This document shows, piece by piece, positions 4,666 through 24,692 of a stretch of DNA of 53,846 bases. Source of the stretch: a virus (lineage: Duplodnaviria; Caudoviricetes); IMG/VR virus record IMGVR_UViG_3300005253_000102, positions 1-53,846 of that record; one strand, written 5' to 3'. Both the position numbers and the translations under genes were made by a program. Positions within the stretch are counted from its first letter, which is position 1; each line of letters opens with the position of its first letter. The notes beneath the pieces were generated by a model. That model worked only from the letters and a program-made list of their open reading frames with translations. It was not told the DNA's origin and ran no database searches.

Positions 4666-5058
4666 TCATATATTTAAAAAATTACAAGGGCAAAAACTAA
4701 AAAAGATGATTTTTTTATTCAGTAGTTTTTTAAATTGTTCTTTTCGACAATTTAATGAAAGTGTACGACGAGACTCGACCCCTGCAAAGGGACTTTCGAT
4801 GGATAAGCGATTTATAGCTTGTGCTGTTATAATATACTGTTTAAGGTCTGCATTAGTCATATCATTAATTGTAAAGGCACGTGCAATTCTGAAAGATTCT
4901 TTTTTAAAGGTATTATCCTCTCTATAATTTTCTTTGACAAAATAATACGCTGCTTTCATTAGTATTTTAGGATTGGATGTGTTTTGAACTATTTCATGTA
5001 ATAGTGAAAGGTTAATTGTACCAAGGGCAAATTGTATAAAAATTTCTTTATCAGTCAT
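4666..5058 (-). CDS. QxALG-tag protein, helical-repeat-like
   Basis: N-terminal TDKEIFIQFALGT; similar to the C-terminal domain of the adjacent NADAR fusion. Confidence 0.7.
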   Translation of the reverse strand: MTDKEIFIQFALGTINLSLLHEIVQNTSNPKILMKAAYYFVKENYREDNTFKKESFRIARAFTINDMTNADLKQYIITAQAINRLSIESPFAGVESRRTLSLNCRKEQFKKLLNKKIIFFSFCPCNFLNI

Positions 5059-5095
5059 GATACTTGTACATTAGTTAGTGATAAATAGTTTACAT

Positions 5096-5893
5096 TTAAT
5101 CTTCAAATAGGAGAGAATGAATACGGTCGAGATCACGCTGTAGTGGTTCTTTTGCTACATTGTAGTAGTGACTGGCTCCCATTGTTAATTTATTACGTTT
5201 ACAATTTTCAAGACTTTTTATCTGTCTGGCCAACATAACATATTCTTTGACTAATGGAGGAGTATTTTCGTTAGTTATAAATGTATTTAATATTATATCA
5301 GCATATGCTTCATCCGCTACAGCACCATCAGATTCTACTTTAATTCCAACGAAGTATTTTGCAGTCGCCGTAAGTACAGATGGATCTTTTGATGAATGTA
5401 TAAGTGCTGCTAGATCGTATGGGTCGAACGTGCCAAGGGCGAGTTGGACTAAAAGTTCGGTGGAGGACATTTGATTGTATTCTAGGCTGTCACGGATGCT
5501 CATTAGGATTATGCCTAAGTTATTTAGGCCTTGACCTTTGCAGATGCCCCAGTAACGGTCGTTCCAATTATTGCCTTCGATTAGTTCAGCTGGCGCGGTG
5601 TTCATTAATTTTTGGCCTAGTTCAGGGTCTTTAAATTTGACTTCGAGAATTTTCTTCATGATGTCGAGTTTGATATCGTTCCAGTCACCTCTTATTTTTA
5701 GTTTTCGACCAGCGCGTTTGGCTTGTCCTGGATCTTTGAGCTTTGCGATTTCACACTGGTCCATTTGCCTTAAACTTTTCTGAGCCTGGAAGGCGTGTTC
5801 AGTAGATGGGTAGGTTCTTCCGTTGTAGTTTATGTTACAAAGAAAAAAGTTGGACAGGAATCTGTATTCCCCTTGGAATGAATCAATCTTCAT
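5096..5893 (-). CDS. NADAR (YbiA-like) family protein fused to a QxALG-tag helical domain
   Basis: FLSNFF, YPSTEHAFQAQK, AKRAGR, LIEGNNWNDRYWG, GLNNLGIILMSIR; about 120 extra aa starting MSSTELLVQLALGT. Confidence 0.9.
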   Translation of the reverse strand: MKIDSFQGEYRFLSNFFLCNINYNGRTYPSTEHAFQAQKSLRQMDQCEIAKLKDPGQAKRAGRKLKIRGDWNDIKLDIMKKILEVKFKDPELGQKLMNTAPAELIEGNNWNDRYWGICKGQGLNNLGIILMSIRDSLEYNQMSSTELLVQLALGTFDPYDLAALIHSSKDPSVLTATAKYFVGIKVESDGAVADEAYADIILNTFITNENTPPLVKEYVMLARQIKSLENCKRNKLTMGASHYYNVAKEPLQRDLDRIHSLLFED

Positions 5894-6350
5894 CGTTGTT
5901 GAATAATATAAGGTTTACTCCAACTTTTTCAAGTAGCCGCCTTGCTACTAAATGAAATTCGTCAGGTCTCCATGAGGCGTCAAATATGACAGTTTCGATG
6001 CCCGTTTGGATAATTGCTTTGGCACATTCGTTACAAGGAGCAAGTGTGCAAAACATAGTTGCGCCTTTGAGTTGTGACGGGTCGATCGTATTAAGGATGG
6101 CGTTAAGTTCAGCATGGACGACAAATGCGTATTTGGAATGAAGAAAATCTCCATCCCTAGTCCAGGGAAACATTAGATCGTCATCGTCAGGAATTCCGTT
6201 AGGCATTCCATTGTAACCTACACCTATAACCTTGTTATTCTTGACGATACAGGCGCCGCATTGTGTACTGGGATCTTTTGACCGTTGGGCTGCCAGCTTG
6301 GCGATACCCATAAAAAGCTCATTCCAACTGATGTAATCTTTTCGTTTCAC
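5883..6350 (-). CDS. dCMP deaminase (ComEB-like)
   Basis: RSKDPSTQCGACIV, GYNG, VVHAELNAI, PCNECAK motifs; AAGGAG RBS. Confidence 0.93.
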   Translation of the reverse strand: MKRKDYISWNELFMGIAKLAAQRSKDPSTQCGACIVKNNKVIGVGYNGMPNGIPDDDDLMFPWTRDGDFLHSKYAFVVHAELNAILNTIDPSQLKGATMFCTLAPCNECAKAIIQTGIETVIFDASWRPDEFHLVARRLLEKVGVNLILFNNDED

Positions 6351-6379
6351 TATATTTATACTCCTTTAAATCTATGCTT

Positions 6380-6408
6380 ATTATACACTGGTCGAGCCTG
6401 AAAAGTTC
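6380..6408 (-). promoter_or_regulatory. putative leftward promoter
   Basis: Minus strand reads GAACTT-N15-TG-TATAAT, the same architecture as the promoters at 8580, 10333 and 11692. Confidence 0.6.
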
Positions 6409-6496
6409 CTAAAGGTTTTTAAGCCTACAATATTTTTCAAGTAAATTCAATCAGCCATATGCAGAGTGCTTTCACGGAACTATTTTATAATCGATG

Positions 6497-22059: not shown

Positions 22060-23023
22060 TAGCGCCGTTCTAAATTTCCGTAAGTACGGGGAAGATGATG
22101 TGGTGACTCCAGAATTGTTGGATAAATATAGGCAGGGTGATGCTAACGCTGCTAATGTTATTGCGAAAGAGATTCTTAAAAATATTCATGGCGCAATGAA
22201 ACATTTAGGTATCATGGAAGGTGCACCTCCGCAAGAGTGGAAAGATTTTAGAGATAAAACTGCCCTGCGTATATGGGAATATTCTGTACCACGATACGAT
22301 CCTACTCAAACAAAATTTAATACATTTGTATTCAACATGGTTGGCAATATGTGGAAGAATTGGCTGAAACAAAAATCTACTGCACCTTTAGATGTGGGAC
22401 CTAGTATTGACGAGCCTGAGCAGGAGATGGCTATAGAAGATCCTTTTGCAGCAGGTTTTAAATCTGAAGTGGAAGCACAAATTATTGAATCTGCTCTTTT
22501 AGAAAATATTAAAAACCCCCGACACCGTGAAATTTTGGAATTGTGGTTAGCTGAAGATCCTGGTGAAAATGTATTAACTAAGGCAGCTAATGTCGCAGAG
22601 ATGTACAATAAGGCTCACCCTGAAAAGCCTATTGATGCCGACCGGATGTATAGGTTAGTGATATATGAAATCTATCCGTTAGTACTCGACGCGTTACCAG
22701 AGGCTGCTAGCGGTGTTGGGTATATTAGAAATCCTAAAACGGGTCCGGGAGATATAAAATGGATACGGAAGCCTAAGCCTGAAGAGGTTACGCCTTCAGA
22801 TGAAACTGTTTTCGAAGAAGAAGAGTATACACTCTCGGAAGAAAGGGTTGCACCAACATATAGAATTGATCCTCAAACTGGTGAACGCACTTTGATAAGT
22901 TTAGATATGAGAAGAAAAATAACTGCAGTACAAGAGGTATGGTGTCACACTTTGTTGACATTTTTAAGTATAGAACGGTATGGCAAATTTAGACGAACTG
23001 TTAAAAGCAGTACAAAAAGATAA
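21992..23023 (+). CDS. divergent sigma-70-like protein (start uncertain, possibly GTG 22100/22103)
   Basis: Region-2-like RIWEYSVPRYDPTQTKFNTFVFNMVGNMWKNWLK; region-4-like NPRHREILELW. Confidence 0.6.
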   Translation: MMKRLNLTLNLTKIRKIQQILSSSAVLNFRKYGEDDVVTPELLDKYRQGDANAANVIAKEILKNIHGAMKHLGIMEGAPPQEWKDFRDKTALRIWEYSVPRYDPTQTKFNTFVFNMVGNMWKNWLKQKSTAPLDVGPSIDEPEQEMAIEDPFAAGFKSEVEAQIIESALLENIKNPRHREILELWLAEDPGENVLTKAANVAEMYNKAHPEKPIDADRMYRLVIYEIYPLVLDALPEAASGVGYIRNPKTGPGDIKWIRKPKPEEVTPSDETVFEEEEYTLSEERVAPTYRIDPQTGERTLISLDMRRKITAVQEVWCHTLLTFLSIERYGKFRRTVKSSTKR

Positions 23024-23771
23024 GAAGAAAACTTTATCTAAAGAAGAAGAAGTAAAGTTAGGGACGATTATTCAATCTCTCACATCTACAGAAACTTCTA
23101 AACAAAAAGCTATTGAGAAACTTGTTCTCAAAAATATTTTCTTAGTGCTTAAAATCTGCCATAGATATAAACGAAAAGAATTTGAATTTGAAGATTTGGT
23201 AAGCTATGGAATTTTAGGGCTTTTCACCGCGGCCCGAAAATTTGATCCCACACGTAAAAATCGATTCGCATCTTACGCACGTCATTGGATTAAAGAAGCA
23301 ATAATGAAGGCCATTCGTGAATACAGTGGCCTACCAAAGATTCCGGTATACCTGGTTAAAAATTTATGGTTGGTCGCTCGTATTTTGTCCAAAGATGATA
23401 CAATAACAGATATGGCACTGGCAAAAAGTGCAGGTATTTCTGAAAAAGATGCTGCATACTTACGTACCTTAATGTTTAAGTTTATTCAATTTGATGTATC
23501 GTATGTGGTAAAGTTCCCAGTAACTCCTGAAGACATGTATGCTTTGAAAGAACGTGATGAACTAATTTACAAAGCTTTGAGTACGCTATTAACTAAAGAT
23601 GAATTTACTGTTTTGGCGCATACCCATGAGTTATGCGGGTATACAAAAATGACGTTTGCGAAGATTGAAGATGAATTAGAAATAAAAAATCCCCGTAGAC
23701 TTAAAGTAGAAGCATTGAAAAAGTTGAGTAATAATCCAATTATGCAAGAGTTGTATAAAGAAGGATGGTAA
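22980..23771 (+). CDS. RNA polymerase sigma-70 family factor
   Basis: [16 protein letters not shown]...[40 protein letters not shown]-terminal ALKKL. Confidence 0.9.
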
Positions 23772-23772
23772 G

Positions 23773-24354
23773 ATGACCGAAAAAAGTTTTAAAGACATGT
23801 TGAATGATGCTGAAGGCGTTAAAGCGGTGCAAGTTATCTCAGTAGTAACGGGTGTAGAAAATATTAGTACACCTTGTGAAAATGCTACCATTGAAGAAGC
23901 TGAAGAAATCTGGGCAAATCTTGAGGCATCCCTCAACCCAGAGGCGGGCTTTGGGTTAACTGCGAATCAAATCGGGGTGAATAAGCGTGTTGGATTCATT
24001 CAATATGCTGGAAAAGTGTACCGATTGTTGAATACTCGAATAGTTGAGACAGGACCTACGACTGTAATTTATAACGAAGGCTGTTTGAGCTTGCCAGGTA
24101 AGACAATAAATACAGAAAGATACCATACAATTACGGTAGAAGACGAAATTCTTGGCAGAATGCAACTTACCATGGCAAAAGACGGTCTTTTACCTGTGAT
24201 TTTTCAGCATGAAATTGATCATATGGATGGAAAAACAATTCTTGACCGGAAAAGACAACCTTTTCGTAGAAGTGCGCCAAAAATCGGTAGAAATCAACCC
24301 TGTCCCTGTGGATCAGGTAAAAAACACAAGAAATGCTGCTTAAATGCTGAATAA
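23773..24354 (+). CDS. def: peptide deformylase with a C-terminal SEC-C motif
   Basis: [42 protein letters not shown]. Confidence 0.93.
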
Positions 24355-24362
24355 TCGTGTAA

Positions 24363-24692
24363 ATGGACATTACTCTTGACGAAATTCGCGTGCAAATTGC
24401 GCTGGGGACCTTTGATCCCTCGATCTACCCTGAAATTTATCATATAACTGACCGAGAAATTCTCACATTTCTCGCGTTTTGTGACGATGTTGTACTAAGG
24501 CGCGCAGTTGCATCCAATCCTAATACTCCTTTCAAAGTACATTATAAGCAATACACAGAAGATCCTGATTTTTTGGTGAGGGAATGTGCTTGGGAACATA
24601 CCCGACTGCGATATGTCCGCATGTTTTATAAGGAACCCCCAAGACCTTCTTGGCGAAAAGACATCGATCCTTACGATACTTCTTGTAAATGA
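24363..24692 (+). CDS. QxALG-tag protein with an LRV-like repeat
   Basis: TLDEIRVQIALGT...LRRAVASNPNTP. Confidence 0.7.
   Translation: MDITLDEIRVQIALGTFDPSIYPEIYHITDREILTFLAFCDDVVLRRAVASNPNTPFKVHYKQYTEDPDFLVRECAWEHTRLRYVRMFYKEPPRPSWRKDIDPYDTSCK

Follow-up and report, generated by a model that had tools for sequence, protein, structure and literature searches.

A portable helical peptide tag on small proteins of one lineage of large marine-sediment myoviruses: a candidate docking handle

The closest precedent for the peptide tag described here is the capsid targeting sequence of bacteriophage T4 (PMC3012670). The present tag is specific to one lineage of large marine-sediment myoviruses, about a tenth of whose proteins carry it, and the carriers are small and otherwise unrelated. 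Its extended consensus is hydrophobic-[ST]-x-K-E-x-x-[VI]-Q-x-A-L-G-[TS]-hydrophobic, with a helix of ~14 residues. A first-pass annotation, which proposed the tag, knew of no described motif matching it, and no Pfam or PHROG family accounts for it in the carriers scanned: ten of the 12 from the window against both libraries and, against Pfam only, the other two, eight relatives and sets of 101 and 145 carriers. The window is the whole stretch of viral DNA analysed (53,846 nucleotides). All 12 peptides named earlier occur in it in frame within ORFs, which bears out the proposal of a portable tag on 12 proteins; the coordinates first attached to them were mostly ORF starts (or minus-strand ORF ends) and are replaced by the true motif positions below.

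5017..5055, minus strand: tag TDKEIFIQFALGT, residues 2-14 of ORF 4666-5058 (o4666, 130 aa), N-terminal
5429..5467, minus strand: tag SSTELLVQLALGT, residues 143-155 of ORF 5096-5893 (o5096, 265 aa), internal
8797..8835, plus strand: tag in o8614, residues 62-74 of ORF 8614-8967 (117 aa), internal
10052..10090, plus strand: tag TRKERKVQKALGT, residues 3-15 of ORF 10046-10249 (o10046, 67 aa), N-terminal
10537..10575, plus strand: tag TCKEAKIQRALGL, residues 58-70 of ORF 10366-10581 (o10366, 71 aa), C-terminal
10752..10790, plus strand: tag SHKEVKVQRALGL, residues 59-71 of ORF 10578-10799 (o10578, 73 aa), C-terminal
11960..11998, plus strand: tag SDKEYEVQLAVGS, residues 79-91 of ORF 11726-12346 (o11726, 206 aa), internal
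12717..12755, plus strand: tag DDKEYAVQRALGC, residues 84-96 of ORF 12468-12827 (o12468, 119 aa), internal
13049..13087, plus strand: tag SDEEYQVQIALGS, residues 76-88 of ORF 12824-13147 (o12824, 107 aa), internal
13473..13511, plus strand: tag DFDELKMQIALGT, residues 15-27 of ORF 13431-13820 (o13431, 129 aa), near the N-terminus
16282..16320, plus strand: tag TKNEIDVQIALGT, residues 3-15 counted from the ATG at 16276, ORF end 16620 (o16270), N-terminal
24372..24410, plus strand: tag TLDEIRVQIALGT, residues 4-16 of ORF 24363-24692 (o24363, 109 aa), N-terminal

The tag is far more frequent than chance predicts. The core pattern E..[VIM]Q.A[LVI]G has 12 matches in the six-frame translation of the window, whereas 200 nucleotide shuffles gave a mean of 0.005 and a maximum of 1 and 200 residue shuffles gave the same expectation. 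A degenerate DNA version of the pattern also matches 12 times versus zero for its reversed control, and reversed-pattern controls gave no match in any record searched. When all gapped 5-of-10 residue patterns were counted without bias, the tag ranked first in the window (11 proteins) and in two relatives, G002 (15) and G009 (13). Among 59 tag instances, Gly codons GGT, GGC, GGG and GGA are used 16, 16, 11 and 16 times, all four Ala codons and at least six Leu codons occur, and third-position identity at invariant residues of the window tags is 0.45. Because codons vary this freely, the tag is conserved at the protein level and is not a DNA repeat, as had been argued at the outset. The invariance of E4, Q8, A10 and G12 in pattern-found sets is partly by construction because the search pattern preset these residues; orthologs of o12824, gathered by whole-protein search, and the de novo pattern count are free of this bias.

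Within the window, five tags are N-terminal (o4666, o10046, o13431, o16270, o24363), two are C-terminal, on the Cys-rich paralogs o10366 and o10578 exactly as first described, and five are internal (o5096, after its NADAR domain, o8614, o11726, o12468, o12824). The helical domain that follows the tag in o4666 recurs at the C-terminus of o5096, and these two proteins cluster when the tag is masked; the tag of o5096 lies between that domain and the NADAR domain (residues 9-137; Pfam E 2.6e-24). NADAR domains target ADP-ribose and are able to undo the ADP-ribosylation of DNA. In o10046 a Trp-rich hydrophobic tail follows the tag, the ortholog of o10366 in relative G001 keeps the C-terminal tag, and o12468 and o12824 form one BLAST cluster. 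The expected N-terminal tag on LRV/HEAT-like repeat proteins is seen in o13431, o16270 and o24363. The first of these has sub-threshold Pfam LRV/HEAT matches and falls in the LRV BLAST cluster; the second overlaps the 3' end of an AAA+ ATPase gene (14895-16292), in a synteny maintained in G001, G002 and G004; the third is LRV-like, lies downstream of genes for the portal, a sigma-like protein, a sigma factor and peptide deformylase, and its G001 ortholog has Q replaced by Y in the tag. With the tag masked, BLAST places the 12 carriers in ~7 sequence groups, and they are therefore not 12 independent contexts.

A wider collection of 260 tagged ORFs resolves into 102 BLAST clusters under the same masking. 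Carriers comprise LRV/HEAT repeats, a winged-helix-like fold, zinc ribbons, NADAR, a DnaG primase core and membrane proteins, and the tag thus occurs on domains that are plainly unrelated, whether at either terminus or internally, as the first reading held. Pfam matches among carriers are limited to LRV/HEAT, NADAR, DnaG_N with Toprim and zinc ribbons; the remainder are single matches to cellular families and are read as chance. The largest cluster is the LRV family (64 of the 260), and 30 of 145 global carriers have Pfam LRV matches. In two paralogous predicted multi-pass membrane proteins the tag is on the C-terminal tail. The tag is mostly an N-terminal element: a plausible start codon lies no more than five codons upstream of it in 197 of the 260 instances. 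It usually follows the initiator Met directly, and is sometimes C-terminal or within a loop. Its supposed absence from core enzymes does not extend to relatives: the DnaG-type primase core of G009 is tagged, and its 43%-identical ortholog in tagless G005 is not, so that the tag has been gained or lost between orthologs.

Relatives of the window phage differ in their tag content. Pattern matches number 14 in G001, 15 in G002, 1 each in G003 and G004, and 17 in G009, and the profile scan proposed earlier adds ~12 further degenerate copies; two near-complete relatives lack the tag. Tagged genes occur mostly in tRNA-rich accessory regions, not in the head module. In metagenomes, 80 loci (286 kb) contain 201 strict copies, some of them in tandem arrays in which 6-7 overlapping genes each begin with a tag, and a HMMER search of 1.84 billion protein representatives recovered 147 carriers at E <= 0.001, in nearly all of which the tag is located at residue 1. 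A scan of 596 billion bases, covering 185,579 species of bacteria and archaea by one genome each, gave 22 match stretches, of which 15 displayed the tag in frame, mostly within unrelated proteins; only two short phage-like contigs look genuine, and no host-like carriers were found.

Structural models agree with the suggestion of an N-capped helix, for which the logo has both N-cap and C-cap signatures and AlphaFold2 gives a helix in two folds. In o16270 (mean pLDDT 94) the tag helix, the first in a HEAT-like solenoid, spans residues 4-13 at pLDDT 96-98. In o12824 a helix at 77-86 (pLDDT about 89-91) lies between two strands, and structure searches return almost solely winged-helix proteins at weak scores (Z <= 5.0); the placement of internal tags in the wing of such a fold, first suggested for four proteins, holds at this level for the o12824 family. 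Since the helix is confidently placed in both models, the tag is predicted to be an integrated part of each fold and not a free peptide, and some of its conserved hydrophobic side chains may lie buried against the carrier's own fold, a point against docking to a shared partner. An alignment of o12824 with 23 relatives (n=24) has E79, Q83, L86 and G87 invariant. Among 37 LRV paralogs, 12-66% identical to o16270, the sole invariant columns are the E, Q, A and G of the tag, which is weak evidence alone because the rows were chosen by the pattern that presets those four residues. Positions 2, 5 and 9 are hydrophobic at frequencies of 0.70, 0.95 and 0.84 in LRV carriers and 0.23, 0.68 and 0.45 elsewhere (means over 101 other clusters), a comparison in which positions 7 and 11 are preset by the search pattern; position 14 is hydrophobic in most carriers, LRV and other clusters alike.

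We assign a probability of roughly 0.55 to the reading that the tag is a portable helix through which its carriers dock to a single partner common to them all. Such a tag would be a self-capped amphipathic alpha-helix of ~14 residues attached to many proteins of the lineage as a docking or addressing handle, with its residues divided among three roles. A capping set (hydrophobic position 0 with 5, T1 with E4, and G12 with hydrophobic position 14) would stabilise the helix on its own; K3, E4, V7, Q8, A10, L11 and position 14 would form an invariant face; and the opposite stripe (positions 2, 5 and 9), which varies with the carrier domain, would probably pack in cis. Because the invariant face is distinct from the carrier-dependent stripe, it would be the common recognition surface for one lineage-specific partner. 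Each genome would have about 30 different proteins in competition for that surface; a single regulatory site is therefore a less probable partner than a processive machine or an assembly present in many copies. No binding partner of the tag was identified.

Where such a helix would dock can be suggested only tentatively. The leading candidate, itself of low probability, is prohead targeting as in T4 (PMC3012670): small effectors of many kinds would enter the prohead by way of a scaffold or core protein or the capsid interior and be ejected with the DNA. The predominance of N-terminal tags, the small size and high diversity of carriers, their partial arrangement in tandem arrays, the NADAR domain in one and DNA-binding-type folds in several are consistent with this, as is the position of o24363 between the portal and major capsid protein genes, and a multi-copy receptor would end the competition of ~30 clients for one site. 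However, the tag also occurs on predicted multi-pass membrane proteins and a DnaG-type primase core, at C-termini and within the wing loop; there is no evident protease site at its boundary; most tagged genes lie outside the head module; and tagless relatives share the major capsid protein (73%), portal (68%) and protease-bearing protein (53%). A DNA or replication-factory hub as partner is a slightly more doubtful version of the docking reading.

Two explanations that dispense with a separate receptor are unlikely, and to the same degree. The tag could be a universal dimerisation or clustering helix that pairs with another tag through its invariant face; Ala10 would then let the helices pack closely, and Gln8 would be a buried polar residue conferring specificity. 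As inferred from the logo, V7, A10, L11 and position 14, with a central Gln and flanking K3 and E4, would suit an antiparallel helix pair; many carriers resemble DNA-binding modules that are usually dimeric (winged-helix-like folds, zinc ribbons); and tagged genes have no recurrent untagged neighbour save mobile endonucleases and one synteny block. A 10-residue helix is nevertheless short for a stable pair, and promiscuous heterodimers among ~30 proteins seem harmful. Alternatively, the tag could be purely structural, an N-terminal capping helix of phage LRV/HEAT-like solenoids spread by duplication and exon-like shuffling, and retained as a very stable helix that protects termini or aids folding. 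The size of the LRV family, which counts against a shared partner insofar as the tag may be just its solenoid cap, the Pfam LRV matches of global carriers, the confident first solenoid helix of o16270, and the textbook capping or packing role that each conserved position would have are in keeping with this. Yet the tag is also the last 13-14 residues of some proteins and the tail of membrane proteins, with no solenoid to cap; bacterial LRV proteins lack it, none of the 15 in-frame stretches of the bacterial and archaeal scan resembles an LRV N-terminus, and the LRV match in a GenBank phage spans the repeats and excludes the tag. This explanation is further weakened because Q8 and A10 would not have to be invariant for the helix to pack on more than 100 unrelated surfaces.

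Within the docking reading, it is quite improbable that the tag is a processing signal. Such a signal could be a degron, or an adaptor site, for a host protease or the Cdc48-like AAA+ ATPase of the phage; it could also be the leader or substrate motif of a peptidase, or of an enzyme modifying Q8 or K3. The ATPase, a candidate receptor from the start, is of the classic clade (nearest p97/Cdc48 D2 at E 4e-31), is encoded in a tag-rich region and overlaps a tagged gene in four genomes; the tag is on soluble and membrane proteins, as are segregase substrates, and sequential handling tolerates many competing clients. Its candidacy is countered by an ortholog, N-domain included, in tagless G005. The gene lies in a block with QueE-like radical SAM, DpdA-like-looking and DUF366 genes that is read as a 7-deazaguanine DNA-modification cluster, membership of which may account for its position, and typical degrons differ from the tag, for which a folded, integrated helix is predicted. 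Copying or targeting of a host motif (RNA polymerase, ribosome, sliding clamp or chaperone), a further version of the docking reading that would bring many effectors to that machine, is very unlikely even though tagged genes occupy accessory, early-looking regions beside a tRNA array and restriction to one lineage could mirror one host group, because the bacterial and archaeal scan yielded no sign of the mimicry raised earlier and thirty clients competing at a single-site hub would be awkward.

A handful of T4 proteins are known to have a capsid targeting sequence. In the lineage described here ~10% of genes are tagged, far above T4, which weighs against the prohead-targeting version of the docking reading.

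All 12 peptides named in the first-pass annotation are present in the window and in frame, although the coordinates given with most of them are those of ORF boundaries. The core pattern occurs 12 times, whereas shuffling gives it 0.005 times on average (200 shuffles of nucleotides and 200 of residues), which removes the concern that it might be as frequent in shuffled sequence; a reversed control pattern at the DNA level matched 0 times. In a de novo count of all gapped 5-of-10 residue patterns, the tag ranks first in the window and in the related tagged contigs G002 and G009. 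The same count in G005, a tagless relative, gives several different top patterns, each in 11 proteins, that look like one ordinary family of about 11 paralogs. Codons at the invariant residues are spread over all synonymous choices (16/16/11/16 for glycine), so conservation acts at the protein level, as the annotation had proposed, and a DNA-level recombination or regulatory repeat is ruled out. The original observation is confirmed and is far more extensive than could be seen from the window: across the lineage, more than 100 sequence-unrelated phage families share the tag as a portable capped helix conserved at the protein level.

The window is a large myovirus of marine sediment without a cultured relative. 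It makes up the full IMG/VR record (53,846 bases; completeness estimated at about 41%), and the sequencing runs that contain it are marine-sediment metagenomes of DNA only, with no RNA runs listed. Its portal has 34% identity to that of Bacillus phage G, and its head and tail genes include a major head protein, a tail sheath, tail fibres and a 1282-aa protein with a head-protease domain (o30020; ORFs are named by start coordinate). A sigma factor, peptide deformylase, GroES, a QueE-like radical SAM enzyme, a DUF366 protein, a classic-clade AAA+ ATPase and 14 tRNA genes are also encoded. Two tagged queries against 50,697 GenBank phage records gave no tagged match; one Moorella phage matched the LRV repeats only, with the tag not covered. 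A scan of 4000-20000 for sigma-70 promoters and terminators gave counts not above those of shuffles, and thus carries no information on expression timing. Individual features of the window are as follows.

Features of the window by coordinate
1-4600: very AT-rich region (GC 0.24-0.26, GC skew about -0.4) with small minus-strand ORFs, no tag and no BLAST match in any related contig; it may be hyperplastic or recently acquired
5883-6350: dCMP deaminase
7250-8571: array of 12 tRNA genes
8972-10024: GDP-mannose 4,6-dehydratase
10252-10325: tRNA-Gly, between two tagged genes
11560-11600: hairpin with a perfect 19-bp stem, just upstream of the next feature
11611-11682: odd tRNA-like gene with a two-base anticodon (ARAGORN)
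13813-14115: GroES (Cpn10)
14087-18124: conserved block with a QueE-like radical SAM gene, the AAA+ ATPase, a tagged LRV gene, a small Cys-rich protein at 16592 (zinc-finger-like by eye), a DpdA-like gene (by eye; 248 aa, weak DUF6610 match) and DUF366; the block resembles a cluster for 7-deazaguanine modification of DNA in which a Cdc48-like ATPase is embedded
21992-23023: 343-aa protein after the portal (o21992)
23773-24354: peptide deformylase
37000-37674: GIY-YIG/NUMOD3 homing endonuclease inserted into the head-neck module; its BLAST cluster has 12 members on 9 contigs, partly in the accessory regions of relatives

A logo built from 59 instances extends the annotated motif by one residue on each side. 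Invariance of E, Q, A and G in this logo is partly circular because those residues are set by the search pattern. In the family of o12824, a winged-helix-like carrier, 24 sequences collected by whole-protein search have E79, Q83, L86 and G87 invariant; this family and the de novo count are independent of the pattern, so the invariance is not circular there.

Residue preferences along the tag in 59 instances
Position 0: hydrophobic (M/L/I/V), 53/59
Position 1: T/S, 41/59
Position 3: K, 39/59
Position 4: E, 59/59, fixed by the search pattern
Position 5: often aromatic or aliphatic
Position 7: V/I, 58/59
Position 8: Q, 59/59, fixed by the search pattern
Position 10: A, 59/59, fixed by the search pattern
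Position 11: L, 54/59
Position 12: G, 59/59, fixed by the search pattern
Position 13: T/S, 38/59
Position 14: hydrophobic, 48/59

Helix-capping rules are well established and provide a basis for reading the two ends of the tag. In our reading of the sequence, the tag would begin with a hydrophobic staple (positions 0 and 5) and a capping box (T1 and E4) and end with a glycine C-cap closed by a contact between positions 11 and 14. In a helical-wheel projection, K3, E4, V7, Q8, A10, L11 and position 14 fall on one face and positions 2, 5, 6 and 9 on the opposite one. Several familiar elements can be set aside: the glycine spacing differs from that of the first helix of a classical helix-turn-helix, the tag lacks the GG or GA of a double-glycine leader, and the P1' residue is not small as at a 3C-like Q-cleavage site. 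The string 'QALG' in the major capsid protein is probably a coincidence because it is in another register and the tagless G005 has the same string.

Tag copies were counted with a degenerate DNA pattern in five relatives found through their portal proteins (G001-G005) and in further relatives. Contig G009 came from a scan of all IMG/VR with a stricter pattern and, judging by synteny, looks like a continuation of G001.

Pattern hits in contigs related to the window
G001: 59.5 kb, 14 hits
G002: 87.7 kb, 15 hits
G003: 16.8 kb, 1 hit
G004: 30.7 kb, 1 hit
G005: 168 kb, about 90% complete, 0 hits
G009: 130 kb, 17 hits
Ten more major-capsid-protein relatives, including G014 (181 kb, complete): 0 hits; some of these contigs are short and may cover no more than structural genes

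An HMM made from the 59 strict instances adds about 12 more degenerate copies in the tagged contigs and finds nothing convincing in G005. Beyond these relatives, the strict pattern occurs in 22 stretches among 596 billion bases of bacterial and archaeal genomes; 15 of them displayed the tag in frame, mostly within unrelated proteins, and two short phage-like contigs binned into metagenome-assembled genomes look like members of the same phage group. Metagenomes contain at least 119 stretches with the strict pattern. Among the matches listed, 80 metagenome loci (286 kb) hold 201 strict copies, in 75 of the loci, and in some loci 6-7 overlapping genes, each about 120 codons long, stand in tandem and each opens with M-T-x-K-E-x-x-I-Q-x-A-L-G-T. 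A HMMER tag profile gave 147 proteins at E ≤0.001 among 1.84 billion representative proteins, with the match nearly always at residue 1. The profile gave 16 hits at E ≤10 in a word-indexed database of 5.8 billion proteins, a search with low power for a 14-residue motif, and the seven hits examined were mostly the query proteins or near-copies.

Placement of the tag was tallied in 260 tagged ORFs. The tag lies at the start of 197 of them, with ATG, or GTG/TTG preceded by a Shine-Dalgarno-like sequence, no more than 5 codons upstream; 32 of these are ambiguous since the frame is open further upstream. A further 7 count as N-terminal from the ORF call only; the tag is internal in 42 and lies within 10 residues of the C-terminus in 14. 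Orthologs hold the tag at the same relative place, at the C-terminus for the Cys-rich family and at an internal site for the o12824 family. Decay is also seen: Q has become Y in the G001 ortholog of o24363, and V has become T and A has become G in the G002 ortholog of the HEAT-like o16270. Four proteins of the global library (P0054, P0055, P0056 and P0072) are built of two units, either both of them a complete tag with LRV repeats or the first o12824-like and the second a tag-LRV unit, and their internal units still open with Met; such ORFs could be gene fusions or tandem-gene read-through in relatives with a lost or reassigned stop codon.

Single-linkage BLAST clustering of the 260 ORFs with the tag masked (E ≤0.001) gives 102 clusters, an upper estimate of the number of independent contexts because BLAST is insensitive for short divergent proteins. 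The largest cluster (64 members) combines the tag with an LRV/HEAT-like family, and the second (21 members) has the tag followed by a Lys/Tyr-rich repeat. Among 101 cluster representatives, the only Pfam families besides a few of cellular type are LRV, NADAR, DnaG_N plus Toprim, and zinc ribbons. The cellular families, with one member each, are pantoate ligase, Tll0287-like, cytochrome c, sigma-70 and radical SAM; we read these single matches, for which the matching member is not given, as chance matches in bacterial contigs. Among 145 of the 147 global carriers, LRV matches in 30, HEAT in 19 and NADAR in 1, with single zinc ribbons; both scans list families without the matched residues. The LRV match of G001_10945 scores 46 bits against a cut-off of 21.6, and that of o13431 is sub-threshold. 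Ten window carriers searched against Pfam and PHROGs gave a sole match, NADAR/phrog_1017 on o5096, that does not explain the tag; o16270 and o24363 had no Pfam match, and Pfam searches of eight tagged relatives gave no family accounting for it. In the scanned carriers, no described Pfam or PHROG family explains the tag, a possibility that the first-pass annotation had raised. Its observation of no tag in the core enzymes does not extend to the relatives, since a DnaG-type primase core in G009 (239 aa, no zinc-binding domain matched in Pfam) has an N-terminal tag. The primase ortholog of the tagless G005, at 43% identity, starts with a different short helix without the tag. Two paralogous G009 proteins, predicted to be membrane proteins from their strongly hydrophobic stretches (19-residue hydropathy maximum 2.2-2.3), hold the tag at their C-terminal tail.

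Structure prediction places the tag with confidence in two different folds. The AlphaFold2 model of the o12824 family (24 sequences; mean pLDDT 79.8) has the tag as helix 77-86 (pLDDT about 89-91) between strands 71-73 and 92-96. Foldseek gave nothing for this model at E ≤0.001, and the best 50 of 48,161 chains compared by VIA-align are mostly winged-helix proteins (MarR, ArsR, TubR, IclR and ORC) with Z of only 3.8-5.0, so the proposed location of the tag in the wing of a winged helix is plausible and is not established. The o16270 model (37 sequences; mean pLDDT 94) is all-helical, with the tag as helix 4-13 (pLDDT 96-98) followed by six more helices; its best Foldseek matches, all weak, are alphaRep, HEAT repeat proteins and 1lrv. 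Confident placement in both modelled folds indicates an integrated helix, not a floppy appendage.

The two faces differ in how they vary among carriers. In the LRV cluster, the fractions of members with a hydrophobic residue at positions 2, 5 and 9 are 0.70, 0.95 and 0.84, compared with means of 0.23, 0.68 and 0.45 over the 101 other clusters; position 14 is mostly hydrophobic in both sets, and positions 7 and 11 are set by the search pattern in this comparison. The 2/5/9 stripe would adapt to each carrier and pack in cis where needed, and the invariant face would be reserved for something common to all carriers. More than 100 unrelated packing surfaces need no invariant Gln or Ala, which a common partner or tag-tag pairing would need, so the invariant face suggests a shared use. 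From these conservation patterns we consider it somewhat better than even (probability about 0.55) that the tag is a docking or addressing handle with a putative receptor and destination. With about 30 clients per genome on one surface, a single regulatory site would be a poorer fit than an assembly of many copies or a machine that takes its clients in sequence.

By analogy with T4, carriers might be directed into the prohead. The N-terminal bias, the arrays of diverse small genes, the single tagged gene within the head module, a NADAR carrier and carriers of DNA-binding type would all agree with such a role. Placement at C-termini and in a loop, the large number of carriers and the presence of membrane proteins and a primase among them argue against it, as do the closely similar capsid, portal and protease proteins of tagless relatives. 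The partner might instead be a hub, located either on phage DNA or at a replication factory. Such a hub would suit the fact that every carrier of recognisable function is DNA-directed, and membrane carriers could serve as tethers, but it has neither a precedent nor a candidate gene. The AAA+ ATPase might also be the partner because its gene adjoins a tagged gene in four genomes, but an ortholog exists in the tagless G005. Complex prediction of a 40-residue tag segment with o21992, with the sigma factor o22980 and with the first 205 residues of the AAA+ ATPase scored 0.00 in two runs, a score that, obtained without controls, neither supports nor opposes binding. Clade-specific genes absent from G005 encode small proteins around the portal and head genes (o16592, o18114, o18636, o19166, o19695, o21992, o24855, o25229, o29573, o35748, o36443 and o37792). 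The most recurrent untagged neighbours of tagged genes belong to a GIY-YIG family (Pfam), to HNH endonuclease-, RNase H- and phosphoesterase-like families recognised by eye, and to the conserved QueE/AAA+/zinc-finger/DpdA-like block; none is convincing as a receptor and, apart from homing endonucleases and this one synteny block, nothing recurs.

A broader and in our view improbable extension of the docking handle is a virus-made addressing code, in which the tag, present on about 10% of proteins, would send soluble enzymes, modules that bind DNA and also membrane proteins, with the primase core and the NADAR protein among its carriers, to one assembly. A factory for replication or transcription could be that assembly, as could a compartment or the prohead, and the tag would do for the phage what nuclear localisation signals or encapsulation peptides do elsewhere. 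Its evolution would resemble that of short linear motifs in eukaryotes, with gains on terminal helices that already existed, as in the primase, and later losses.

For the clade-specific protein o21992, the sole pointer to a sigma factor is an ESM Atlas lead at 0.94 toward sigma-70-like clusters; hhalign against a sigma alignment was negative and PDB sequence searches were empty, and a sigma-like nature is unproven. The syntenic gene in G005 (L025:15322-18879, L025 being a piece of that genome) encodes a protein of 1185 aa in which LRV-type repeats can be recognised by eye; this protein has BLAST hits to tagged G001 LRV proteins and contains three copies of a module of about 70 aa. Its residues 729-842 align with o21992 at 24% identity (pairwise E 4e-6), so it may be a fusion linking LRV proteins to o21992, which has no bearing on the tag.

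If the tag is a docking handle, about 30 otherwise uncharacterised proteins per genome and more than 100 metagenome families would be clients of one machine, and finding one receptor would give the destination of all carriers. This would offer a direct experimental entry to the unannotated part of large environmental phage genomes, and a compact, portable helical tag of 14 residues could be of use in protein engineering. A system this large with N-terminal, C-terminal and loop placements would be new. If the tag is merely structural, such strict conservation of a helix sequence across unrelated folds would still be unusual.

Several known systems share features with the tag. Clamp-binding PIP-boxes (Qxx[LIM]xx[FY][FY], or QL[SD]LF) also combine a conserved Gln with spaced hydrophobic residues, as do Q8, L11 and position 14 of the tag, and occur at N-terminal, internal and C-terminal places on many clients of one hub, the three places in which the tag is found. 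However, F/Y at position 14 is limited to 9 of 59 instances and a hydrophobic residue at position 15 to 0.06-0.21 of carriers, nothing in the PIP-box matches E4, A10 or G12, and the PIP-box is an extended peptide with a 3-10 turn whereas the tag is helical and capped. The N-cap helices of alpha-solenoids (HEAT, LRV and alphaRep) are comparable in that the tag forms the first solenoid helix of o16270, and LRV/HEAT carriers are evident from the above-threshold match of G001_10945, the LRV matches in 30 of 145 global carriers and the all-helical o16270 model. In contrast to such caps, the same tag sequence occurs on non-solenoid folds and at C-termini, is much more conserved than the repeats that follow it, and was not seen on bacterial LRV proteins in the bacterial and archaeal genomes searched (596 billion bases). 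The cargo-loading peptides of encapsulins and the encapsulation peptides of bacterial microcompartments are short, occur at either terminus of unrelated enzymes and dock to a multi-copy shell, and those of microcompartments are amphipathic helices. They differ from the tag in sequence and sit on flexible linkers, whereas the tag is predicted to be integrated in its carrier folds; a shell or compartment gene is not identified here.

To our knowledge, the T4 capsid targeting sequence (CTS) is the only comparable phage example, on fewer proteins and in one position. Literature word searches returned no other report of such a shared peptide motif in phage proteomes, which does not prove absence. 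In the T4 account (PMC3012670), the CTS is described as the sole conserved element of highly diverse internal defence proteins and sends them into the scaffolding core. Both peptides are short, conserved, mostly N-terminal and the sole common element of diverse small proteins, several of them defence-related in T4 (PMC3012670) and some in tandem arrays here. A conserved short N-terminal peptide on diverse small phage proteins is what 197 of 260 ORFs in 102 clusters display, a resemblance by analogy only. Unlike the CTS, the tag is a capped helix that is also C-terminal or internal, marks membrane proteins and a primase, and is present on about 10% of genes. By analogy, we group the tag with targeting and docking peptides that are common to several proteins, of which the T4 CTS is an example.
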